From assembly GCA_965248355.1 (NCBI GenBank), contig OZ252098.1, positions 928,001-992,000 on the forward strand: a stretch of 64,000 nt of DNA. The letters are read 5' to 3'. The position numbers were made by a program, and so were the translations under genes. The notes below the pieces were generated by a model that saw only the letters and a list, made by a program, of their open reading frames with translations, was not told where the DNA came from and did no database searches. Every line of letters starts with the position of its first letter. The first letter of the stretch is position 1. Shown in pieces: positions 11,268-61,440 of the stretch. The DNA comes from Candidatus Latescibacterota bacterium (GTDB lineage Bacteria; Latescibacterota; UBA2968; UBA8231).

Positions 11268-12122
11268 ATGTCGTCATCAACGCTGCAGACCGATACCCTG
11301 GTCGATCGATACTTTCATGAGATAGAGAGTTCGGTCGGCCTCTCAGCTGCCGAGGAGATCGAAGTCGCCAAGCGGATCAAGGACGGCGACGAGGAAGCCC
11401 TGGGCGAGTTGGTCCAGGCCAACCTGCGCTTCGTCGTCAGCGTCGCCAAGCAGTACCAGAACCTCGGGCTCCCCTTGTCGGACCTGATCAACGAGGGCAA
11501 CCTCGGGCTGATGGTCGCCGCCCGGCGCTTCGACGGGTCGAAGGGTTTCAAGTTCATCTCCTACGCGGTCTGGTGGATCCGTCAGTCCATCCTGCAGGCG
11601 TTGGCCGAGCAGTCCAGGATCGTGCGACTGCCTCTGAACCGGATCGGCGAGCTCACCAAGGTCAACAAGTGCATGACCCGCCTCGAACAGCGCCTGGGCC
11701 GCGCCCCCGAGGTGGAGGAAGTCGCCGCCGAGCTCAAGACAAACCCGGACGACATGGAGATGGTTCTTCGTTTGGCCCAGCGGCCCGTGTCCCTCGAGAC
11801 ACCGTGCGACGAGCAGGAACCCGACCGCCGCTTGGGGGATTTGCTGCCCGACGACACCTTGAGGGCCTTCGATGAGGTCCTGTCGGAGGGGGACTTGCGG
11901 GAGGAGATCCAGTCGGCCATGGACGGCCTCACCCGGGGCGAGGCCCGCGTGTTGCGCATGTACTACGGGCTCGACGGCCAGGATCCGATGACGCTGGAGG
12001 AGATCGGCAGGTACGTGGGACGCACGCGCGAACGGGTACGCCAGATCAAGGAAAAGGCGCTGCAAAAGCTCAGGCACCCGAACCGCAGCGAGGTGCTCAA
12101 GGAGTACTACGGGGAGGACTGA
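11268..12122 (+). CDS. RNA polymerase sigma factor, RpoD/RpoS-like without region 1.1
   Basis: ANLRFVVSVAK.Y, DLINEGNLGL, FKFISYAVWWIRQSI, RIVRLP.N, TLEEIG...TRERVRQIKEKAL.KLR; GGAGG RBS at 11255. Confidence 0.93.
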   Translation: MSSSTLQTDTLVDRYFHEIESSVGLSAAEEIEVAKRIKDGDEEALGELVQANLRFVVSVAKQYQNLGLPLSDLINEGNLGLMVAARRFDGSKGFKFISYAVWWIRQSILQALAEQSRIVRLPLNRIGELTKVNKCMTRLEQRLGRAPEVEEVAAELKTNPDDMEMVLRLAQRPVSLETPCDEQEPDRRLGDLLPDDTLRAFDEVLSEGDLREEIQSAMDGLTRGEARVLRMYYGLDGQDPMTLEEIGRYVGRTRERVRQIKEKALQKLRHPNRSEVLKEYYGED

Positions 12123-50045: not shown

Positions 50046-51160
50046 GCGGGGAGGGCTCTCCGGTACGGGTCGGCCTGGTCGGCCTCGGCGGCGTCTGCGA
50101 GAGGGTCCACTACCCGGGACTGTCCCGCATCCAGGACGTGGAGATCACCGCCCTGTGCGATGTGGACGAGGAGCGGCTCGCCCGCAGAGCGCGGGAGTGG
50201 GGAGTCGAGACCTGCCACGCCGTCCTGGATGACTTCGCGCGCGGCTCCCAGGTCGACGCCGTGGTCATCGCCACCCCCAATCACCAGCACCGGCAGTTGA
50301 TCGAGGCTGCCCTCGATGCCGGTCTGCACGTGCTGTGCGAGAAGCCCTTGGGAATGGACCTGCCCGAGGCCGTGGCGATCTACCGCGCCGCCGCCGACTC
50401 CGGGCGGCGGCACATGACGGCCTTCACCTACCGCTTCGTTCCGGCCATGGCCTACCTGAAGTGGTTGGTGGAGGCGGGGCACCTCGGCCAGATCCGCCAC
50501 GCCCGGATCCAGCGGCTTCAGGATTGGGGTGAGGCAGCCATCGGCTGGCGCCAGTACCGACGTCTGGCCGGACTCGGCGAACTGGGGGACATGGGCATCC
50601 ATCGCATCGATTACGCCGAGGATCTGATGGGGCCGATCCGCTCGGTGTGCGCCTCCATGAAGCAGCTGGCGTCCCGGGATCGGACCCCCGACGGAGAGGT
50701 CTGCCCACCCCAGGACGTGGAGGACTGGGTCGCCTGGATCGCCGACTTCGAGAGCGGTGCCACCTGCGTCTTCGAGATGGGCAAGCTGTCCAAGGGGCGC
50801 GGTCCCCGCGGCGATCACGATCTGGCGGAGATCAACGGTACGGAGGCGTCCGCGGTCTACCAGCTCGACCGACCCCACGAGATCCTCTTCGCACCGAGAG
50901 GAGAACCTTACCAGGTCCGTCCGGTGCCTCCGTCCTTTCTGACCAGGCCGGGATCGCCTCGGGATCCAGCCCAGGGAGATCCGGACATCGCCTTCCGCTA
51001 CGACCAGGCCTGGGAGTTCATCACCGCCATCCGCGAGTCCCGGGACTGCGTGCCTTCCTTCTACCACGGCATGCGTGCCCAGGCCGTGGCCGAGGCGGTC
51101 GTGGAAGCCGCACGGGAGCGCCGGTGGATCGATGTTCCGGAGGTGCCCGCACAGGCCTGA
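50042..51160 (+). CDS. Gfo/Idh/MocA-family oxidoreductase
   Basis: VGLVGLG, VDAV.IATPN..H, HVLCEKP, G.LGDMGIH.ID. Confidence 0.92.
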   Translation: MSGEGSPVRVGLVGLGGVCERVHYPGLSRIQDVEITALCDVDEERLARRAREWGVETCHAVLDDFARGSQVDAVVIATPNHQHRQLIEAALDAGLHVLCEKPLGMDLPEAVAIYRAAADSGRRHMTAFTYRFVPAMAYLKWLVEAGHLGQIRHARIQRLQDWGEAAIGWRQYRRLAGLGELGDMGIHRIDYAEDLMGPIRSVCASMKQLASRDRTPDGEVCPPQDVEDWVAWIADFESGATCVFEMGKLSKGRGPRGDHDLAEINGTEASAVYQLDRPHEILFAPRGEPYQVRPVPPSFLTRPGSPRDPAQGDPDIAFRYDQAWEFITAIRESRDCVPSFYHGMRAQAVAEAVVEAARERRWIDVPEVPAQA

Positions 51161-51216
51161 CTGACACGGGGCCCGCCGGGCCGAGCCGCCGTGCGGTCCC
51201 GGACCCCAGCCTGCCC

Positions 51217-52767
51217 CTATGGCCGGCGACGGAAGCAGCGACGGCTCAGCAGGACCCAGGCCCCCAGAGCAACACCGCTGAGCAGGAACACCCAATCGCC
51301 CCGACGGGTGTAGGGGGTGGTTTCCCCTCGCGGATACACGCTCGCGACGATGGTATCCGTCTCGAGCAGCCGTGTCCTCTCCCGGATTCGACCGCTGGCT
51401 TCCACGACACATGAGATCCCGGTGTTGGCCGCTCGCAGGACCGGGCGGCCTGTCTCCACGGCGCGCAGCACGGCCATGGCCAGATGCTGCCTCGGGGCCG
51501 CGGAGGTCCCGAACCAGGCGTCGTTCGTGGTGTTCACCAAGAGCGTGGCCCCCCGCACCGCGAGAGTACGGGGGATCGACGGGAAGATCGATTCATAGCA
51601 GATGAAGACGCCCAGCCGGGCCTCCGCTCCCGGTATCTGCAGGACCTGGTGGTCTTCTCCCGGGTCGAACCGTCCACTGTGGACGGTCAGCGCTTCGAGG
51701 TAGCCGAACAGCCATGGAAGAGGCAGGAACTCGCCGAAGGGCACCAAGTGGACCTTGTCCGCCGAACCGACCACGGTCCCGCTCCGGTCGGTGAGGAAGG
51801 ACCGGTTGTAGAGTCCGGGCCGTCCCGAAGGGGAGATGGATCCGAGGCTGCCCACCAGCAAGGGAGTGTCGGTCTCGCGGGCGAGCTGCTGGATCTGCAG
51901 GCGGTGGTCCCGGTGGCCCTCCGCGTCAAGGCGGAAGGGGAGGGCCGTCTCCGGCCAGAGGATGAGATCCAGGGGGCCCTCCTCCTGCACCAACCCCCGG
52001 GTCAGCCCGCTGTAGTGGTCGGTCGCCGAGCGGACCCCCGGCCCCAGCCACTTCTCGCCCTGGGGGATGTTTCCCTGCACGATGCCGATCCGCAGGGCCT
52101 CTGCGCGCGTCTCGGACTGGAGGCGATCGAGCCGGTCGAGTCCAAAGATCAGCGAGATCAGCAGAAGGCCTCCCGCCATGGCGGGAGAGCGGACCCTGGC
52201 GGAGGGCTGGACGATCGCCTGGGAGGCCACCGCGTTGACGAGGACGATGAGGAAGGTGATTCCGTGGACGCCAGTCACCGCCGCCAGCTGGGTCAAAGCC
52301 GGGTAGCGATACTGGGTGTAGCCCAGTAGCTCCCAGGGGAACCCGCTGAGCATCCACGTCTGCACCCAATCCAGAAGCGTCCACAGGCAGGCGGTCAGCC
52401 ATGGCCAGCCGTGCGAGGACCTCGGCAGGTGCCGGCACAGCAGCAGGAAGAGCGTGGGATACGCCGCCAGGTACAGGATGAGGAACGCCGCCGTCAACCA
52501 GGCGAGAGGAGGACCGAGACCGCCGTAGAGCTGCAGGGTCTCGGCGACCCAGTAGACGCGTCCAGCGCCGGAGACCAGACCGAAGGAAAGGCCGGCCAGA
52601 GCAGCCTGCCGGGTGGGAAGCGGAAGACCCCGCCTGCCTCGGAGCACGAGGAGGAGGCAGGGGATCAGGCACCCCCATGCGACCCACCCCTGATCGGCCT
52701 TGGGCAGAGCCAGGCAGTACAGCAGGCCGCTGCCGGCGCCAACGAGGACGCTGACGCCGGAGGACAC
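51217..52767 (-). CDS. lnt: Apolipoprotein N-acyltransferase
   Basis: GFPW.LLGY.Q, VQGNI, WPET, KVHLVPFGE, ICYE (E-K-C triad), TNDAWFG, RAVE..RP..RAANTGIS. Confidence 0.96.
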   Translation of the reverse strand: MSSGVSVLVGAGSGLLYCLALPKADQGWVAWGCLIPCLLLVLRGRRGLPLPTRQAALAGLSFGLVSGAGRVYWVAETLQLYGGLGPPLAWLTAAFLILYLAAYPTLFLLLCRHLPRSSHGWPWLTACLWTLLDWVQTWMLSGFPWELLGYTQYRYPALTQLAAVTGVHGITFLIVLVNAVASQAIVQPSARVRSPAMAGGLLLISLIFGLDRLDRLQSETRAEALRIGIVQGNIPQGEKWLGPGVRSATDHYSGLTRGLVQEEGPLDLILWPETALPFRLDAEGHRDHRLQIQQLARETDTPLLVGSLGSISPSGRPGLYNRSFLTDRSGTVVGSADKVHLVPFGEFLPLPWLFGYLEALTVHSGRFDPGEDHQVLQIPGAEARLGVFICYESIFPSIPRTLAVRGATLLVNTTNDAWFGTSAAPRQHLAMAVLRAVETGRPVLRAANTGISCVVEASGRIRERTRLLETDTIVASVYPRGETTPYTRRGDWVFLLSGVALGAWVLLSRRCFRRRP

Positions 52768-53096
52768 TACAACTCCAGATAGTCGACCAGAGGCTGGCGC
52801 AGCTTTTCCAGGGCGCCGCCCTCGAGATCCCGGACCTCCTGGCGGGACAGGCGCAGACGGGAAGCGACGGCGCCGGGAGAGCGTTTCTGCTGGTAGCGCA
52901 GCTTCACCACCGTGAGTTCCTGAGGGGTGAGCCTCTCCAGAGCGCCTGAGACGATCCGGCGCAGCTCCTGGCTCTCCACTCGATCGAGGGGTGATTCGGG
53001 CAGAAGAAGGGCGATGAACCGTTCGTCGAGGGGCACCCGGCCGGTGAGCTCGGCACCCGTAGGCGGATCCTGGGAGATGCGGTCAAATCTCGACAT
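52767..53096 (-). CDS. Stand-alone sigma70 region-4-like HTH protein
   Basis: ELR..V..AL.RL.PQE..VV.LRY......VA.RL.LSRQEVR.LE..ALEKLR; GGAG RBS; TAGTG overlap with lnt start. Confidence 0.75.
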   Translation of the reverse strand: MSRFDRISQDPPTGAELTGRVPLDERFIALLLPESPLDRVESQELRRIVSGALERLTPQELTVVKLRYQQKRSPGAVASRLRLSRQEVRDLEGGALEKLRQPLVDYLEL

Positions 53097-53114
53097 GTCT
53101 CTCCTGCAGGCAAT

Positions 53115-53147
53115 AAAAAATCAGGGAGCTGAAGCCGGCTCCCTGAT
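53115..53147 (-). terminator. Rho-independent terminator immediately upstream of the sigma-4 gene RBS
   Basis: Minus strand ATCAGGGAGC-CGGCTTCA-GCTCCCTGAT followed by TTTTT. Confidence 0.75.
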
Positions 53148-53339
53148 CGATTTGGCAGGCCGACCGCAACCCTCTTCATAACCACTCACCGGCAGGCCCT
53201 GGAGAATCAACTCCTTGTATTTTAAGGACTTATGAAAATCCGGGCCGTTGCGCGGAGGAGGAAGCGGGGTTGAGGCCAATTTCCCTTTCCCCTCAAAGTC
53301 GGCAAAAGCGGAAGCGGGGTCAAGACGACTTCCGCTCTT

Positions 53340-53557
53340 CGGGGGTCGATCAGCAGCTGTTTGGGTGGACGTGGGATCTCCCAGTAACGTGAATTCCTGT
53401 TGATGGTCAGCCCGGGCAGGGCCATGTCCCATGGATCATCTAATCCTGTGATCAGGACTTCGGGACTCGAGTCCGACCAGTAGACTCTATCGTGGGTCTC
53501 GTCCGGTTCCTGAGCGTAACTGATACCCATAAAGCCAAAGGCCCATGTCAATACCAA
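53340..53557 (-). pseudogene. Remnant of secreted YWTD/LDL-receptor class B-like beta-propeller protein
   Basis: Signal-peptide-like LVLTWAFGFMGISYAQ, then DRVYWSD...EVLITGLDDPWDMAL; no proper ATG, short. Confidence 0.4.
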
Positions 53558-53883
53558 AAAAATGACGTTTCGACAGGCACTATATCGTCCCTAAGAGGGC
53601 GTCCGGCGAGGGCCTCCCAGGGGCGTGCACCCGGTTTGCCCGGGTATCTGCTACGGGTTGAAGCGCCTGACGAAGCGTTCACTCTCTATGGCGAAATTTG
53701 GATGAAGGGGGGGGATCGGTCGGAGACAGACGGGAGTCCAGAAGTAAGCTAAAGCGTGAAAAACACTCAGTTGCGCAGACTAGGCGTGGGGGAAACTTTT
53801 TTCGAAATTTCTTCCAGAGGCCCAGCGAAAATTCGCTGAGAGGGGTCAGGAGGGACCGCTTGGCTCGCGGGCCGGGCGGGGCA

Positions 53884-53925
<42 letters not shown>

Positions 53926-54267
53926 TTCAGAATCGAGACCCCGTGGGGCGATGGGGAGGACATCCCTCGCTCCGGGAGCGGGGAACGGCAAGGCGGTCCT
54001 GGACGCACCCGCGCTGCCTGTGCTGACCCCGGTGGGTCCCGCTCAACCGGTCCTGAAAGGGCCAAAGCGGACGCTTGGGGGCGTTGTATAAGGTGGGAAC
54101 AGCTTTGCCTTTGACGATTTCCGTTAGACCGGCCTGCGAATCGACCGCCGGGTACGGAAGGCCGTAGCTGGTGCTACGATGACCTCTCAAGCAAGAAGTG
54201 GTAGGGTTGGACGCCCATCTGAGAGCCAGTGGGACACGGGCTTCCGGGCGCCACGCCACTCGTCGAT

Positions 54268-54296
54268 TTGACAAGAGTTATCTGTTGGCCTATATT
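54268..54296 (+). promoter_or_regulatory. Putative sigma70 promoter of island protease gene
   Basis: TTGACA-17 bp-TATATT. Confidence 0.7.
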
Positions 54297-54504
54297 CATA
54301 TCACTTTTTCACTTTTTGCAATCCCTAAACAAAGAGAGCCCCCAAATCGTCGGCATATCTACAGTAAATGGCCGGCGCAAGCCCCAGGGGCCCAAGCTCG
54401 CGGGGCAAGGGTAGCTCGGCCGTTAGTTGGGACCCTAATCATTTTCATGCGTGGGCTTTAGGTTTTATTTCACAAGGCCGAACCGAGGCTAAACGGGAGG
54501 TAGT

Positions 54505-55890
54505 ATGGAGATGAGATATCGAAATTCGAGCATAGTGTGGGTATGGACGATTTGCCTACCCTTACTGGTTGCATCTGGGTTGTGGGCGAGTATTCGTCGT
54601 CCGCCGCCGCCCGAAGAGATTGTGGCTCAATCAGAGCGAACCGTGTTAGCCAAGGTATTGGGCAAGGAGACGGTTGATGATGGAGCGAATGTCTATACCC
54701 GTACCCACTTACGAGTTCTCTGGGATATGACTCACGCCGCGGGGAGGGGTGGAGAGCAGGATTTGGCGGACACCGAAATCTCTGTCGTGGCTGGACTGGG
54801 GTCGTAAACGGTTGGATTACGGGTTTAAGTCCTGCGATATTCTGGAAGAACGAAGTAGTGGTTGTCTCTCTTGAGCTATTGGGAGATGACGACGAGGTGG
54901 AGATGTATCACAACGGGGTCGACATATTTGAAGACTTTTTTTGGGGAATGGCACGTTGTGCATGGAAGGGGAGGTAAGATTGGGTTCAATAGGCATGCAA
55001 GAGATCCACGAGAAGAAGCAAAGCCGATGCGCGATGTAGACTGGCAGCGTCTGGTGGATCACTCGGCCCGAGTGCTGACTTGGTTGGGTGTTGAATCGGA
55101 CGCGGCGATTTCAACGGCGAAACAACACCTTCGGACTTTGCGTCCGCAGCTACCACCGTCAGGGAAGATTCTACAAAGTGGCCCACAAATAACGGGCATG
55201 TCGCCAACCACCATTCCTGCTGGGACGGATTCAGTAGTGACCTTGACCGGTAGTAATTTCGGCACAAGTGAGGGTACGGTTCAGCTTTTTGCCCTGCCCA
55301 ACCCGGATGAATGGGCTGAACTTTTTGACGACGAAGTCCTATCTTGGACCGATACCCTGATAACCTTCGCACCCCCCTCTGATTTGTACGGCTCTAGTGC
55401 ATCTGGATACTCCCCATTCCCGAGTAGTGGAAGAGTTGTTATCGAGACGACTTCATCCCAGACGGACACAAGCAGCCAAGTACTAAATATCAAGTATAAC
55501 TACGTTACTCGCATCTGGGCGGACAGTTCAATCCCAATGGTATATCGTATGAACAGCAATGGGACTGCGGACTGTACAGGAGAATTTGCTGCGGTGGAGG
55601 CAGCGTTTGACACTTGGCAAGATATCGGTAGGTCCTATATGACCTATGAGCGCGGTCCGGACACCACCCTCACAACGCAAGCGGCGGACGGGGTAAACCT
55701 GGTCGTCTGGGAGGATTTAGGTTCGGATGGGCCCATTGCACGTCTCCGGCCTTGGAATTATCCTATTACCGAGGTGGATATTACATTTAATGATTATTTC
55801 AATTGGACGACCTCTGGACAAACGGGTCGGTTTGATGTCCAAAATGTGGCTACGCATGAGATAGGTCATACTCTTCTTCTTGGGGATCTC
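54505..55890 (+). pseudogene. Secreted IPT/TIG-domain + matrixin/metzincin-like metalloprotease, frameshifted and IS-truncated
   Basis: GGAGG RBS, signal peptide, PQITGMSP...VTLTGSNFG...SWTDT.I (IPT/TIG), AAFDTW, EVDITFN, DVQNVATHEIGHTLLLGD; frame breaks near 54790 and in the T7 run near 54936; cut by IS at 55891. Confidence 0.75.
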
Positions 55891-57316
55891 GGGCAAGTCC
55901 CATTTTCAGTTGAAACGTAGCCCAGGCTCGAGTGGATGAGTCAGCCCGTCATCGCGAGCTGTTTGAGGCCGAGTTCGGCTTGGAGCGCTTGTCGGAGCAT
56001 CGGCAGGTGGTGGTAACCGTTGATCCGGCGCAGGCGAGGTTCGATGTCGAGCAACGCCGTGGCGACCCAGCGGTGACGCTGCGACGAGTTGGTCCAGCGC
56101 CGCACGTTGTGCGTCAACTGCTCCAGGAGACTGTTGACGTTCTCGATACAGTTGGTGGTACGGAAGGAGGCCTTCAGCATCGGCATCAGGCCCAGGCGGT
56201 GGAGCGTGAGGGTTTCTTGCTGGCCTTCCTCCAAGCTGCGCAGGGCCGACTGGTTCATCAACTGCAACCCCGGTTTCAGCGCCTCCAGGGCGGCTTGGGC
56301 CTCCTCGTACGTCGAGTGCCCATACGCCGCTTCCAGCTTTCGACGAACGCCGCCCTGCTCGCTCTTGGGCAGGTACGAGACCACGTTCTGGCGCTTGTGA
56401 TACTGGCATCGCTGCACGCAGGCATGGCCCTGGAGCACCGACCGCACTGCCTTGTACAGGCCCTTGCCTCCATCGATCACCACGAGCAGCCCGGCCTCGT
56501 ATTGCAGGCCCCGCTCGACCAGCTCCGCCAGGAAGCGACGACAGACGCGCTCGTTCTCGGTCGCCGCCTGCACGAAACCCAGAGGGATCTTGTGTCCTTC
56601 CACAGTGACGCCCAGGGCGATGAGGATTTCCTCGTCGGCAAAGCTCTTGCCGTCCAGAAACAGCGCCACCAGGTCGTAGCCTTCCAGGGATCGCTGCTGG
56701 AATTCGGCCAGCTTGCGCGCCGTGCCTTTCACATACCGGCGAGAGACCGAGGAACGGGACAGACCGAAGGCTTGCGGGACGGTCTCGGCGCAGGCCTCGT
56801 AGTTGCGCGTGGCCAGGCCCTTCAGCACCCGCAACAACAGCCCCTGATCCATCTGCCTCGGCGTCTGCAGGGCCTGGTAGGCCTCCAGCGGGACCTCGGT
56901 GCCGCGGACCACATCGCGCACGCGCGGCACCTCGACCGGCAGTTTCTGATCGCCCAGGTACACCGACCCGGCCTGCGCCCCCCAGCGGCGCAACGGCTGA
57001 TCCGGCCCCTTGCGCTGATACCGAGGTCCGGCCAGGGCCTCCACGCCCCGTCGCAGCTCCTCCCCAACCGCCTGCAGCCCCAGGGGGATCAGCAGCTGGA
57101 TGATCTCGATGCGAGTCTCCAGATCGTCCATCGACGCGGTGGCTTGGCGGTTCACGGGGCCGATGGTCACGGTCCGTTTGACGCCCCTTTTCCGTGCTTG
57201 TAGCTTGCTCATGGCAGGCTCCTTGGGTTACCGAATACGAGGCTTCTTGGCGATTTCTCGTATCAAACGTAACGATGGGAGCCTGTGTTATTTCAACTAA
57301 GATCGGGACAATGCCC
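55891..57316 (-). mobile_element. IS256-family insertion sequence
   Basis: Imperfect terminal IRs GGGCAAGTCCCATTTTCAGTTGAAA (55891-) and reverse complement GGGCATTGTCCCGATCTTAGTTGAAA (-57316) flank the transposase. Confidence 0.88.
55941..57212 (-). CDS. IS256-family DDE transposase
   Basis: VPRVR, G.STR-like GLATR, LFLDG (D), VIDGGKGL (D), QRCQYHK.RN-like, TTNCIENVN (E). Confidence 0.93.
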   Translation of the reverse strand: MSKLQARKRGVKRTVTIGPVNRQATASMDDLETRIEIIQLLIPLGLQAVGEELRRGVEALAGPRYQRKGPDQPLRRWGAQAGSVYLGDQKLPVEVPRVRDVVRGTEVPLEAYQALQTPRQMDQGLLLRVLKGLATRNYEACAETVPQAFGLSRSSVSRRYVKGTARKLAEFQQRSLEGYDLVALFLDGKSFADEEILIALGVTVEGHKIPLGFVQAATENERVCRRFLAELVERGLQYEAGLLVVIDGGKGLYKAVRSVLQGHACVQRCQYHKRQNVVSYLPKSEQGGVRRKLEAAYGHSTYEEAQAALEALKPGLQLMNQSALRSLEEGQQETLTLHRLGLMPMLKASFRTTNCIENVNSLLEQLTHNVRRWTNSSQRHRWVATALLDIEPRLRRINGYHHLPMLRQALQAELGLKQLAMTG

Positions 57317-58197
57317 GCTTTTCCCGCTTGCGGGTGTAGGTGTGCGCCATGCCGGTCTCGCAGGGCGTGCAGTAGAGCAGGCCGTTGAGCAGCGCCCCGT
57401 ACTTGTTGCGCACCTCTTGTCCGCCCGCCAGGCCGTTTCTTCGCAGGGTCTGCTGCACCTGCTGCCACAGATCGGGATCGACGATGGCGTCGTGTTCGCC
57501 CTCGTAGAGCGCGCCTTCGAACCGCACCTTGCCGGTGTAGAGCGCGTTGGTGAGGAGCCGGTACAACCCGTTCTTGGTGAAGGGCTTGCCGCCACACTCG
57601 TGGCCGTCCCTGGTGATCCAGCGCTTGGTGCCCCAGCCACGGCGGTCGAGCTCTCGGATCACGGGGATGGCGGCCTGGTATTCCAGATAAAGCTGGTAGA
57701 TCGTGTGCACCTGCGCCGCCTCCTCCGGGTTGACGAAACCGACGGCCTTCCGGAGCCACGTCGTAGCCCAGCACGGGCCGGCCTCCGATCCACTTTCCTT
57801 TACGCCGCGCCGCCGACACCTTGTCCTTGATGCGCTCGGAGATGATCTCGCGCTCGAACTGGGCGAACGAAAGGAGGCGATCCACCTTGTAGACCACCAC
57901 GCAGTCGACCTGGCCGGCTTCGATGTCGGCGCACAGGCGCTCGAGGGCGGGGCGCTGCATGTTGCCGCCGGTGAAGCCGCCGTCGTCGTAGCGGTCGGGC
58001 AGGCAGATCCAGCCCTCGGAGCGTTGACTGGCGATGTAGGCTTCGGCCGATTCCCGCTGGGCGTCGAGGCTGTTGAACTCCTGGTCGAGCTCCTCGTCGG
58101 TGGACTTGCGCGTGTAGATGGCGCAGCGGAGGGCGCCGTTTAGAATCGAGGCCGGCGCCGCTTGGGTCGCCCGGGCTGGGTGGAGGGTTCCGTTCAT
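57317..58197 (-). pseudogene. Large serine recombinase (resolvase + recombinase + Zn-ribbon start), internally deleted, frameshifted, IS-truncated
   Basis: RCAIYTRKST, NSLDAQ, YDDGG.TGGNM.RPAL, VVYKVDRL, FAQFERE.I.ERI.DK, GYD; continues in another frame with LL.N..Y.G, GEH.AI, LL.GLLYC..C. Confidence 0.88.
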
Positions 58198-58724
58198 GCG
58201 CTCACCTCCTCGTGCGTGCGCCGGCTCGCCGGGGAGTCGCCACCGGTCAGCCTGAAGAACAGGAACCCGTTCCATTTGCTGCCGGTGACTTCCCTGGCGA
58301 TGGCGGACAGAGACGGGTAGCGCCGGTTTTCGAACTCGAAGCCCTCGTCGAGGACTTTGACCGCGATGTCGAGGCCCCGAAACGTCCGAGCCAGCAGCGT
58401 GCCGGGCAGCGGCAGCCGGGGGTCTCGCGAGGGCGGGATGCGTCTCTTCGCGGTTCGTGCCCTGACCTGGGCCGAGCCCGGCTTGATCGGGTCACGCGGG
58501 GGGCGCTGCCGCAGATCGGCGTCGTTGGCCAGTTCCTTGGCCCGCCGCCGGGCGCGCTCGGACAGGTCGCCCTCGGCCACCGCCTGCAGGCGCCAGGCGA
58601 TGCGCTTTGCGCAGAAACGCCTTGTGGTTGGAGCGGGTTTCCTCGCCGAACACGTCGAGGTATTCCTCCCGGAGCTGGCCCAACGTCATGCGGGACAGCG
58701 CCTGACGAAGTCCTCCGGATTCAT
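58194..58724 (-). pseudogene. DUF2924-domain protein, frameshifted
   Basis: MTLGQLREEY..VFGEETRS.HK.FL | RIAWRLQA.AEG.LSERARRRA, DPRLP.PGT.L.R.F.G....VKV...GFE.....Y.SLSAIA..VTG.KWNG..FF.L; extra base at 58606-58608; ATGA overlap with recombinase. Confidence 0.8.
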
Positions 58725-59425
58725 GGGGCCCCGGGCGGGCGGTCTATCCGCCGCGCCCTCTCGGGGCGTTAACCGTGTTCATGAATGAGGCCCTTCGATC
58801 TCCCGAACAGTCAAGGCAATTCTCCCGTAACCGCCTGATAATATTCGGCTTTTTCGGTATTCTCCCCGGATTCTGGCGCCATCTGGGGGCTTCTCTGCAG
58901 GCGCAGGTATCGGGGATGGGCGCGAGGGTGGGCATCCGCTCCTCCTTTGCGGCCGGTGTGCCGCTGCTGGCAGAAAACCAGGGGAGGGGGACGTCGCGGA
59001 TGCCGGGGGACGGAACGGTCGCGGGGAGCCCGTTGGAGCCCCGCTCGACATCGCAAGCGCGATGCCGCCGGCACCCACAGCGGGCTCCGTGCTCCTGGCC
59101 GCTGCCGCTGTCTGGTGATCAGCCGAACCCCAGTGGTCCGGCTTCGCGTAGATACTACCGGAGCGGGTTAGGAAACGTCGACATCGGTCGACCGAGTGCC
59201 ACGAGAGCGTTAAACAAGGCGGAGTGATGAACGGAGAATGGGAGAATCAGGAAGTGAGATTTCGGACATCCGAGCGCAACCCCCACGGTTGCACTCGGAT
59301 ACCGAGCGGCTCGTTTCAAAACGGAGAATCGGGGAGGATGTGCCCAGCGGCGCAAGTGCTTGAAAGAGCGCCAGATACGACAAGCCCCCGAGGGGGTGAT
59401 CCTCCGGGGCTCGCGTTAACCAACA

Positions 59426-59445
59426 AACCGCCAAAGTTAGCGGTT
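59426..59445 (-). terminator. Hairpin directly downstream of tRNA-fMet
   Basis: Minus strand AACCGCTA-ACTT-TGGCGGTT followed by TGTTGGTT. Confidence 0.45.
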
Positions 59446-59452
59446 GGAAATT

Positions 59453-59529
<77 letters not shown>

Positions 59530-59539
59530 ACACGTATGG

Positions 59540-59567
59540 AATATACGCTCTCCAGGGGCGAATGCAA
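59540..59567 (-). promoter_or_regulatory. Putative promoter of tRNA-fMet
   Basis: Minus strand TTGCAT-16 bp-TATATT, 10 nt upstream of the tRNA. Confidence 0.6.
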
Positions 59568-59576
59568 CCCCCAGGT

Positions 59577-60917
59577 TTACCCCTGCGATGCCGTAGAGGC
59601 CTCGGTCCGGGCGCTCCCCCCGTTCGGGCGCCGCTTCATCTGCACCTGCGAGATTCGCTGCCCATCGACAGCCAGGATCGTAATCTCGAAGCCGGGGACG
59701 AGGATGGACTGCCCCGGGTCGGGCACATGGCCCAGGTGGTCATAGATGAAGCCGCCCAAGGTGTCGAAACCGTCGCTCGGAAGATCGGAGGCCAGGAGCT
59801 CGTTCAGTTCCTCGATGTTGATGCGCGGGTTGACCACCAGCACCTCGTCCGGCTGCCAGTGGTACAGGGTCTCCTCGGCATCGTACTCGTCCTGCAGCTC
59901 GCCGACGATCTCCTCCACCAGGTCCTCCGTGGTCACCAGGCCGGCCGTGCCGCCGTATTCATCCACGACGATGGCCAGCCGGGTTCGGGCCTGGCGGAGG
60001 TCGCGAAGCAACTGGTCGATTTTCCTGGTCTCGGGCACGTAGAAGGGTTCGTGCAACAGCTGAAGCCCCTTGCCGTCGCTGGTAGGGATCTCGTCCAGGA
60101 GGAGACGCATGGGAGAGTCCCCGTTGACGGGGCTCGGCATCCCCAGAAGCTGCAAGAGATCCTTGGCGTAGAGGATGCCCCGGATCGAGTCGAGGGACTC
60201 CTGGTAGACGGGGACCCGGGAGTGGCCCTGGTCACGGATCGTGTTCAGCAGGTCCGCCACGGTTCCGTTCATCTCCACGGCGGTGATATCGACCCTTGGG
60301 ACCATCACCTCGCGAACCACGCGGTCGTGGAAGCCGAAGACGCCCTGGATCATGTCTCGCTCCCCCTCGTCCAACACCCCGGTCTCGCCTTCCGAATCGA
60401 CCAGGCTGCGCAACTCCTCTTCCTTTTCCGCCTTGAACTCCTCGTCGGAATAGTCGGCGGCGGCGAGGCGTTGCACGACAGCGGCCAAAGGGCCGAGAAG
60501 GAGATGCATGGGGACGTACAGAAGGGTCAGAGCCGGGATCCTGGGATCCTCGCCTTCGACCTCGAAACGGACGCGGCGCGCAGTGGAGGCGGCGAGAAGG
60601 CAGAGCGAGACGACGGCGATGGCTGTTACCCCCAGGGCCGACCATTCGACGTCGAGCTGGGAGCGAAGCAGGAAGTACAGGGACAGGGTCAGGACGGCGG
60701 CGCAGAACCCCTGACCGAGGCGGGAGATCAGCAGCAGCCGGTGGCGCGGCTCGTGGACACGCAGCATCAGGGGGGCGCGAGGCACCCCGGCGTCTCTCAT
60801 CTTCTCCAAGGAGGACCGTGAAAGGACGCCGAAGGTCGCCTCGTAGCTGGCGAGGACAAAGAGCGCCGCAGAAGAGAGGATGGTCAGCGCGAGTTCAGCG
60901 ATTTGGGGAGGTTCCAA
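59577..60917 (-). CDS. Hemolysin-family / CorC-TlyC CNNM-CBS-CorC domain protein
   Basis: TM N-terminus, EEELR.LV, VREVMVPR.DI, GHSRVPVY, G.LYAKDLL, VPET..I..LL, AIVVDEYGGTAGLVT.EDLVEEIVGE..DEYD, DTLGG; start inferred at TTG 60917. Confidence 0.92.
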   Translation of the reverse strand: MEPPQIAELALTILSSAALFVLASYEATFGVLSRSSLEKMRDAGVPRAPLMLRVHEPRHRLLLISRLGQGFCAAVLTLSLYFLLRSQLDVEWSALGVTAIAVVSLCLLAASTARRVRFEVEGEDPRIPALTLLYVPMHLLLGPLAAVVQRLAAADYSDEEFKAEKEEELRSLVDSEGETGVLDEGERDMIQGVFGFHDRVVREVMVPRVDITAVEMNGTVADLLNTIRDQGHSRVPVYQESLDSIRGILYAKDLLQLLGMPSPVNGDSPMRLLLDEIPTSDGKGLQLLHEPFYVPETRKIDQLLRDLRQARTRLAIVVDEYGGTAGLVTTEDLVEEIVGELQDEYDAEETLYHWQPDEVLVVNPRINIEELNELLASDLPSDGFDTLGGFIYDHLGHVPDPGQSILVPGFEITILAVDGQRISQVQMKRRPNGGSARTEASTASQG

Positions 60918-60975
60918 GAATGGGCTCTCCAACTCCTTTCTGAAAAACAACCTGCCAGGGCTGTCGAGGAAGTCA

Positions 60976-61440
60976 TCACCGTGGTTGGACGAAGCGCTCC
61001 GTCTCCCTTTCCATGACGCCCAGTTCCGCAGCCGTCCGGTGGTCGAATCCCGCCAGATGCAGGAGACCGTGGACGAGAAGCCGGGCCAGTTCCTCCTCAA
61101 CGGTCACCCCCCGCTCCTCGGCCTGCGCAGCGGCCCGCTGCAACGAGATGTAGAGTTCGCCCGCCGGGGCCTCCAAGGTCGGAGGGGGAAGGACATTACC
61201 ACCTCCCGGGCGCCCGGCAGGGTCCCCGAGGAAAGAGAAGGAAAGGACATCGGTGTTCCGGTCCCGGCCGCGGTAGGCCGAGTTCAGGCGGCGGACCTCG
61301 CTGTCGTCGGTGAGCACGGCCTCCACGGGGCCGCCCGCGACATGCACGGAGAGAACCCTCCGGGCTACCGCCGTCAGGCGGCGGCGCGTCTCGGCCGCAA
61401 CGGCCTCAGGCAGGTTCGGGCTGCAGTGCAGTCGAAACAT
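60976..61440 (-). CDS. ybeY: rRNA maturation endoribonuclease YbeY
   Basis: LN..YRG.D..TDVLSF, GE.YIS, HGLLHLAGFDH. Confidence 0.95.
   Translation of the reverse strand: MFRLHCSPNLPEAVAAETRRRLTAVARRVLSVHVAGGPVEAVLTDDSEVRRLNSAYRGRDRNTDVLSFSFLGDPAGRPGGGNVLPPPTLEAPAGELYISLQRAAAQAEERGVTVEEELARLLVHGLLHLAGFDHRTAAELGVMERETERFVQPR

Follow-up and report, generated by a model that had tools for sequence, protein, structure and literature searches.

In a window of 64,000 nucleotides (nt) from a Candidatus Latescibacterota bacterium (GenBank assembly GCA_965248355.1, contig OZ252098.1, positions 928,001 to 992,000 of the forward strand), a small gene that we call sig4 lies directly before lnt, the gene of apolipoprotein N-acyltransferase, and encodes a protein of 109 amino acids (aa) that resembles the tail of a sigma-70 factor standing alone. 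We found that sig4 is a genuine protein gene, restricted to one bacterial family of Gemmatimonadota type and present in one copy per genome, and that lnt followed it at every locus compared. A preliminary description of this DNA, made from its letters alone, had proposed that a promoter, a hairpin of about 115 nt and a terminator form a dedicated small RNA (sRNA) or attenuator, which controls sig4 and, by translational coupling, lnt. This RNA-controlled module does not exist as described, and the supposed leader is mobile-element DNA lying before the old terminator of a transfer RNA (tRNA). We consider it likely that an island has entered an ancestral gene order that includes the initiator tRNA (tRNA-fMet), that the old tRNA terminator has stayed with the pair of sig4 and lnt, and that this pair is expressed by read-through.

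Linkage of sig4 to lnt

Both genes are on the minus strand, sig4 at 52767-53096 and lnt at 51217-52767. The lnt product of 516 aa, which begins at a GTG codon, is predicted to consist of the membrane domain LNT_N (E 3.9e-35) and the CN_hydrolase domain (E 9.9e-32), both above the cut-offs. The TAG stop of sig4 and the GTG start of lnt share one G, as the preliminary description had read from the motif TAGTG, and the ribosome-binding site GGAG that it had noted is also in place at 53101-53104, 4 nt ahead of the sig4 ATG at 53096. On the other hand, a Shine-Dalgarno (SD)-like motif was found before sig4 in only 14 of the loci compared.

The comparison covered 36 distinct sig4 loci including the window, after the exclusion of identical duplicates and of L018-L021, in which there was no orthologue or only a fragment. 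In all 36, lnt was found directly 3' of sig4 on the same strand, and the adjacency that the preliminary description had asked to be looked for in homologues is thus conserved. The stop and start codons overlapped in 14 loci and were separated by 1-4 nt in 15 and by 11-28 nt in five, while two were unclear. Because lnt is always the next gene, and the stop and the start overlap or nearly touch, sig4 and lnt are very probably translated from one mRNA.

Outside the family, five genomes were found to carry lnt without any tRNA within 1.5 kb, and four of these are among the 92 non-family genomes that gave no sig4 match. A helicase-like open reading frame (ORF), recognised by its motifs, precedes lnt in the nearest outgroup (G030, the sole outgroup locus of which the ORFs were read). 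Two further observations concern lnt itself. In some genera of the family (L026, L027 and L029-L032), the lnt ORFs have 731-754 aa, because Lnt is extended at its C-terminus by about 220 aa that match nothing in Pfam, and the genome of the window holds a second lnt paralogue (G000:C1:2070366-2071727), which is 38% identical to the Lnt of the window.

Domain content and conservation of the sig4 protein

The sig4 product matched the Pfam family Sigma70_r4 (PF04545) above the cut-off at residues 52-101 (E 2.5e-9) and gave no match to Sigma70_r2 (PF04542) at E <= 0.1, in agreement with the first description of a 109-aa protein with region 4 and without region 2. The general sigma-70 model of NCBIfam (TIGR02937) was covered only at positions 96-165 of 165, and residues 522-601 of E. 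coli sigma70 aligned in sequence with residues 27-102 of sig4. The alignment and the domain matches together indicate that sig4 encodes the end of region 3.2 followed by regions 4.1 and 4.2. The AlphaFold2 model, with a mean predicted local distance difference test score (pLDDT) of 79, consists of five helices and a disordered N-terminus (residues 4-21). Its best Foldseek matches in the PDB were the sigma-4 domain of SigL with RslA (template modelling (TM) score 0.78 on the target) and region 4 of sigmaE on DNA, with E-values of only about 1e-2, as is expected for such a small domain. In the cyanobacterial SigA chains 9dvs_G and 8gzg_F, unlike sig4, the loop between regions 4.1 and 4.2 is four residues longer. 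These data support the reading of sig4 as a sigma-70 region-4 protein (3.2-4.2) on its own.

A word-indexed search returned 38 homologues of 107-129 aa, lengths that show sig4 not to be a piece of a full-length sigma gene. The possibility, raised at the outset, that homologues would turn out to be C-terminal fragments of full-length sigma factors was therefore not borne out. When 1.84 billion cluster representatives were searched with a profile built from 19 homologues (A2), 16 scored E <= 1e-10, and below these were mostly longer proteins, matched at their C-terminal ends with at most 54 bits. None of the 92 genomes from 13 other families of the phylum was matched by the sig4 profile. The homologue records that carry an organism name are metagenome-assembled genomes of Gemmatimonadaceae, Gemmatimonadetes or Candidatus Latescibacterota.

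It might be thought that sig4 is a decaying fragment of a sigma-factor gene or a chance ORF, since it corresponds to no more than the final third of a sigma factor, and since a 289-aa sigma factor, the nearest paralogue that its genome encodes, is 31% identical to it, residues 21-102 of sig4 aligning with residues 183-276 of the paralogue. This explanation is ruled out by conservation, and we give it almost no weight. The gene was found exactly once in each of 62 of the 75 other genomes of the window's GTDB family, and its product has a constant length of 107-111 aa in most loci. The ratio of nonsynonymous to synonymous substitution (dN/dS) against ten orthologues was 0.14-0.34, which indicates purifying selection, with one pair saturated. 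In addition, 28 columns were invariant in an alignment of 19 sequences, and the fold is predicted with confidence. Among 36 orthologues, the best-kept stretches were L23-F27, V40-R46 and R67-G75, E92 was invariant, and R85, which aligns with R584 of sigma70, was kept in 31. The gene of the 289-aa paralogue is situated in the same window, at 11409-11618 on the plus strand.

The terminator and the ancestral tRNA-fMet

Directly ahead of sig4, an 11-bp stem followed by a T run occupies 53112-53148 on the minus strand. The strong intrinsic terminator of the preliminary description is thus present; folded alone, it reached -19.1 kcal/mol (z -4.85), and none of 200 shuffles was as good. A scan of 51000-55000 counted one terminator-like site against 2.7 +/- 1.8 in shuffles, which is not above chance, so that the support for the terminator comes from its fold and its conservation. 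Across 16 loci, RNAalifold gave -20.19 kcal/mol with a compensatory change in 5 of 10 pairs. The G+C-rich hairpin, the U run and the compensatory changes are those of an intrinsic terminator, and termination activity is predicted from them.

The comparison of the loci indicated where this terminator comes from. In 23 of the 35 other loci, a tRNA-Met(CAT) is found directly upstream of sig4 on the same strand, and L017 additionally has one at about 420 nt. A corC/ybeX-like orthologue lies upstream in 23 of the 36 loci, which are the same ones that have the adjacent tRNA, and a hairpin with a T run lies between tRNA and sig4 in the relatives. In the four closest relatives, this terminator is nearly the window's own, with the arms CAGGGAG- and -CTCCCTG and the sig4 ATG 25 nt past the stem, and in one genus (L061-L067) the ATG is only 8 nt past the stem, within the T run, without an SD motif. 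A script search of the 36 loci found a terminator-like site in 22 of them, with three weak ones left uncounted.

In the window, ARAGORN placed a tRNA-Met(CAT) at 59453-59529 on the minus strand, 6.3 kb upstream of sig4. Initiator tRNAs are recognised by three features: the anticodon is CAT, the anticodon stem has three G-C pairs at its foot, and position 1:72 is unpaired. Among the three CAT tRNAs, only this one has the three G-C pairs by the anticodon loop (GGG/CCC) and the unpaired U1/U72, and it is therefore the initiator, tRNA-fMet. It is preceded by the promoter-like sequence TTGCAT-16-TATATT (59540-59567, minus strand), which was read by eye and has similar hexamers in relatives, and by a corC/ybeX-like gene with CNNM, CBS and CorC_HlyC domains (59577-61100, minus strand), the ancestral upstream neighbour. 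Because the tRNA and the same covarying terminator stand directly upstream in 23 of 35 related loci, we identify 53112-53148 as the ancestral tRNA-fMet terminator. The ancestral layout of the family would accordingly have been corC, tRNA-fMet, intrinsic terminator, sig4 and lnt on one strand. In Proteobacteria, lnt belongs to the gene neighbourhood ybeZ-ybeY-ybeX(corC)-lnt. The two arrangements are alike in having a corC-like gene upstream of lnt on the same strand, but the family of the window has tRNA-fMet, the terminator and sig4 between corC and lnt.

The island at the CCA end of tRNA-fMet

In run X5, from a related strain, a contig of 8,740 nt covers 51000-53149 of the window, from which it differs there in 48 letters and 13 gaps, and then joins 59450, skipping 6,300 nt. 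Six letters fit both sides of the joint 53149|59450. The window therefore carries an island of 6,300 bp (53150-59449) at the CCA end of the tRNA. The G+C content is 0.50-0.58 in the low part of the skipped stretch, at 53-56 kb, compared with about 0.68 around it. The six letters, CCAAAT on the minus strand, are the CCA of the tRNA plus AAT. The right copy of this core is at 53150-53155, and the left copy, which includes the CCA end of the tRNA, is at 59450-59455. The terminator is situated just outside the insertion, and the long hairpin (53162-53277) just inside it.

Close to the tRNA end of the island is the remnant of a large serine recombinase gene (57297-58275, minus strand), which is split over two frames. 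The Resolvase domain is at about 57874-58122 (E 5.7e-17), and the Recombinase domain is in the other frame, in an ORF at 57297-57710 (E 2e-10). A DUF2924 gene (PF11149, E 6.5e-27) is located at 58194-58580 on the minus strand. The recombinase gene is truncated beside an insertion sequence (IS) that cuts it and that encodes a Mutator-family transposase (55941-57212, minus strand; Transposase_mut, E 6.3e-35). Since the recombinase is frameshifted and cut by the IS, it is unlikely that the island is currently mobile. The cargo includes an ORF of 352 aa (54862-55920, plus strand) with matches to Peptidase_M10 (matrixin; 21 bits, cut-off 24) and TIG (19.7 bits, cut-off 20.9), both below the curated cut-offs.

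Insertion at the tRNA 3' end, a short direct repeat, a recombinase gene near one end, an allele with the empty site and a reused site are found here as in known tRNA 3'-end islands. It differs from them in that the repeat has only 6 bp, a large serine recombinase and DUF2924 take the place of a tyrosine integrase, and the far end is a conserved module of 215 nt. The reuse of the site is evident from other genomes, in which tRNA-fMet is upstream of sig4 on the same strand at distances of 4.2 (G019), 11.8 (G011), 12.4 (G124) and 8.5 kb (G129). In G019, the sequence GCTACCA, a copy of the tRNA end, stands directly before the retained terminator. In this family, insertions have thus landed at the CCA end of tRNA-fMet again and again. 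In the window strain, an integrative element has entered at the CCA end and has since decayed, and the crossover within CCAAAT has parted the tRNA from its own terminator.

Some other features of the island were observed. The Mutator-family IS is present in high copy in the sample, with a depth of 900-1800 compared with about 23 in the flanks (run X1). A plus-strand run of about 40-50 G (53869-53920, repeat family D1) is a place where the contigs of run X1 break. Two hairpins derived from the island (59380-59449) now lie 3' of tRNA-fMet and may serve as its terminator; hairpins like them follow copies of the end module described below in G124, G019 and G017.

The long hairpin and the end module of the island

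The long imperfect hairpin of about 115 nt was correctly described as a structure. The segment 53160-53280 of the minus strand folds into one such hairpin at -49.2 kcal/mol (z -3.12), which none of 200 shuffles equalled, and in the 241-nt context 53090-53330 the z-score was -2.37, with 3 of 200 shuffles as good. The hairpin is, however, the conserved right-end module of the island and not a leader of sig4. This module, which we call module X (53150-53364, minus strand), has 215 nt, holds the hairpin together with a 25-nt core at 53166-53190 and ends in CCA. Ten copies with 77-81% identity are spread over five other family genomes: G019 has five, G017 has two, and G124, G119 and G145 have a single one. 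Of the ten, six end at most one base from the island boundary (53151/53150), and four end 2-15 nt inside it. Three of the G019 copies are spaced at 6.0 and 6.9 kb, like tandem islands (G019:C2:273853-286997), and no tRNA heading this array was found on that strand within 18 kb.

When up to two mismatches were allowed, the 25-nt core had 15 sites among 168 genomes of the phylum. These sites fall in 9 genomes, some of them from two other families, and a reversed-pattern control gave no site. Four metagenome contigs matched the core, none of which carries sig4, lnt or island genes, and there was no match in viral contigs. The copies of module X that were read end in CCA or GCCA, except for G048, G017a and the divergent G141, and three copies are followed by bases similar to the left end of the window's island. 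The read depth of run X1 was 293 and 268 at the ends of the island against 21-34 in its middle, that is, about ten times higher, and a second copy of the hairpin region was not found elsewhere in the same genome. No DUF2924 or recombinase gene lies within 1.5 kb of the 13 other genomic copies. We tentatively read module X as a conserved end, or attachment (att) arm, that is common to a group of related integrative elements.

That the promoter, the hairpin and the terminator are a dedicated sRNA or attenuator of sig4 and lnt now seems very improbable to us. It is true that the hairpin and the terminator both fold better than shuffles, and that any transcript entering sig4 in the window strain must cross module X. 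The promoter-like hexamers TTGACC-17-GACTTT (53295-53323, minus strand) are also present as they had been written, inside module X, and similar hexamers are conserved in the G019 copies only; the second of them makes a poor -10 box, and a scan listed no promoter on the minus strand of 51000-55000, so that the promoter does not rise above chance. Against the proposal, the hairpin belongs to the 6,300-bp insertion that is missing from the related strain, it was found upstream of sig4 in none of the 35 other loci, and its other copies are not beside sig4 or lnt. For 12 copies of module X, the consensus energy from RNAalifold was only -6.48 kcal/mol and the covariation term was +0.14, which is no support for a conserved structure. 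When the window hairpin was imposed on the alignment, 68.3% of the cells were paired, compared with 67.5% in column shuffles, of which 73 of 500 were as high. The Rfam search of 52500-54600 at E <= 10 returned nothing in the hairpin or the terminator and two chance-level matches elsewhere. The minimum-energy and centroid folds showed no alternative pairing of an anti-terminator kind, for which no dedicated search was made. Of the two upstream structures that had been expected to be conserved with covariation, only the terminator is kept and covaries, and it is older than the island. The preliminary description had itself named a leader structure that is not conserved in relatives and a terminator displaced from tRNA-fMet as signs against its proposal, and both were found.

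A further explanation is that module X, rather than being a protein-binding att arm, is a gene for a small RNA that ends in CCA like a tRNA and travels on mobile DNA. A body of about 150-215 nt is conserved, the 25-nt core is invariant across three families, nearly all copies end in CCA or GCCA, hairpins follow several copies (terminator-like in one, G019c), and some copies have TTGAC-type hexamers upstream. However, the absence of covariation and of an Rfam match applies to this explanation as well. Each copy has a different minimum-energy fold, and the contigs of the RNA runs described below leave the island uncovered. We therefore hold an RNA gene to be rather unlikely and keep to the reading of module X as the end of an integrative element.

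Expression of sig4 and lnt

In the ancestral layout, the terminator takes up the space from the tRNA to the start codon, and in many loci we see no room there for a promoter; in one genus the ATG is 8 nt past the stem. For this reason we infer read-through. By analogy with E. coli, the sig4-lnt message would arise by read-through of the tRNA terminator and subsequent processing, and expression of the pair through read-through or processing appears probable. The metY-rimP-nusA-infB operon of E. coli likewise has the initiator tRNA first, Rho-independent terminators before the first ORF and the downstream genes on the same strand; the terminators t1 and t2 separate metY from rimP, and processing by RNase III cuts the tRNA out of a longer RNA and releases it (PMC6511841). 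The window is unlike this operon in that the downstream genes are a sigma tail and lnt, not translation and transcription factors, and that co-transcription is deduced from the layout. In the E. coli operon, moreover, metY is followed by an internal promoter, P2, of which we see no counterpart in the window. In the window strain, transcription that reaches sig4 would have to come out of the island.

Several observations weigh against this account. At least five genomes, including the window strain, have 4-12 kb of foreign DNA between tRNA and sig4 with the sig4-lnt pair intact, so that the tRNA promoter cannot be indispensable. A terminator-like hairpin was not found by the script within 260 nt in 11 of the 36 loci, two of which show a hairpin with a longer loop by eye, and 12 of the 35 related loci are without an adjacent tRNA. 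Moreover, contigs from two RNA libraries of one study (X22 and X23) have their ends at 53099 and 53103, only 3-7 nt short of the ATG, at a place where the DNA contig continues. These two libraries contain contigs with sig4 and lnt sequence from a close strain, which means presence and not transcription, as DNA may be in the libraries. The contig ends are a weak hint that an RNA begins immediately behind the terminator, whether by initiation or by processing, as contigs cannot show the ends of RNA.

These observations could be explained if sig4-lnt had its own 5' end directly after the terminator, formed by a promoter overlapping the hairpin and T run or by an obligatory processing site, and were independent of the tRNA promoter. 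The insertions are tolerated in five genomes of four genera, the two contig ends lie at the right place, and a very short leader would fit the genus that has the ATG 8 nt past the stem and no SD motif. However, no sigma-70-like pair of -35 and -10 boxes can be placed in the tRNA end, the hairpin or the T run, either by eye or in the scan. Both RNA runs, in addition, come from one study, and their contigs can neither show starts nor be freed of a possible share of DNA. An own 5' end is thus a tentative explanation, which we regard as less probable than read-through of the old tRNA terminator.

Possible roles of sig4

We lean slightly to the view that sig4 acts on transcription as a sigma-4-like module, which would bind the flap of RNA polymerase, sigma-4 partners or DNA and would tie the expression of envelope genes to lnt. 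The likeness to region 4 of sigma-70 factors holds for the sequence (PF04545; sigma70 522-601) and for the fold (sigma-4 of SigL, region 4 of sigmaE). Sig4 is unlike these factors in having no regions 1-3.1 and in the poor conservation of the positions that would read the -35 element, and the latter speaks against a role in transcription. Positions 86, 89 and 90 align with the -35-reading residues of sigma70 other than R584, and they hold 11, 9 and 9 residue types, respectively. Most orthologues are acidic to neutral, with an isoelectric point (pI) of 5-6.7, which argues against a fixed DNA target. A partner consisting of region 2 only was not seen among 20 matches of PF04542, the single Pfam model used, of which the four frames shorter than 200 aa were read; the two shortest of these carry their own region 4. 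The pattern of conservation and the pI fit a protein-binding mimic of sigma-4 better than a protein that recognises a single fixed motif in DNA, and they do not decide between the two.

Stand-alone sigma-4 proteins are known as YlxM/UPF0122 upstream of ffh in Firmicutes and as gp33 of phage T4, and SigO-RsoA of B. subtilis is a split sigma factor. Like these, sig4 is small and essentially a sigma-4-like helix-turn-helix, and like ylxM before ffh, it is located directly upstream of a gene of membrane biogenesis. Unlike YlxM, sig4 gave no match to UPF0122 (PF04297) at E <= 0.1 and is not a member of that family, and it differs from the other stand-alone proteins in being confined to one bacterial family and, within the limited reading of PF04542 matches, in having no visible region-2 partner. 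In the ESM Atlas there are many clusters of stand-alone region-4 proteins of 88-108 aa, which come mostly from Bacillota and phages, and uncharacterised clusters of 90-108 aa bear the name 'Sigma-70 region 4 domain'; one Atlas neighbour cluster of sig4 has PF04297 on 54% of its members, which we treat as a lead only. A literature search at the level of result listings gave nothing specific on stand-alone region-4 proteins or on lnt in Gemmatimonadetes. Free sigma tails are thus not new as a kind, and the fixed coupling of one to lnt behind tRNA-fMet is new.

The analogy of YlxM with Ffh/FtsY suggests another role, in which sig4 would not be a transcription factor but would assist Lnt or lipoprotein maturation as a partner in the cytoplasm. 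The strict and tight coupling to lnt in 36 of 36 loci, the variable positions of the recognition helix, the acidic character of many orthologues and the location of the most conserved stretches outside the DNA-reading face would all agree with such a partner. However, sig4 does not match the YlxM family. Lnt exposes little of itself to the cytoplasm. The five outgroup genomes, furthermore, carry lnt with no tRNA nearby, and four of them do so without a sig4 match. A direct action of sig4 on Lnt or the lipoprotein pathway therefore appears improbable, and a YlxM-like partnership in particular is doubtful. An action of sig4 on transcription remains the view that we prefer, and the remaining weight, about a third, goes to a function of some other kind.

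A more specific proposal, which is speculative and in our judgement unlikely, is that sig4 is a free sigma tail (3.2-4) of a new kind, which would dock on RNA polymerase or on some partner that binds sigma-4. It would be made in a fixed proportion with Lnt, from a message that owes its level to leakage past the initiator-tRNA terminator; in a bolder variant, sig4 would bind Lnt itself.

To our knowledge, the function of free sigma tails has been established in only a few cases. Sig4 offers a clean test case, because its partner gene, lnt, and its upstream signal, tRNA-fMet with its terminator, are fixed. The conserved 215-nt end module travels with insertions at the CCA end of tRNA-fMet, and in this family of little-studied bacteria a sigma tail has been kept as a separate single-copy gene that is always joined to lnt. 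If the docking proposal were true, the maturation of outer-membrane lipoproteins would be wired to transcription and to the growth-rate-controlled promoter of tRNA-fMet.

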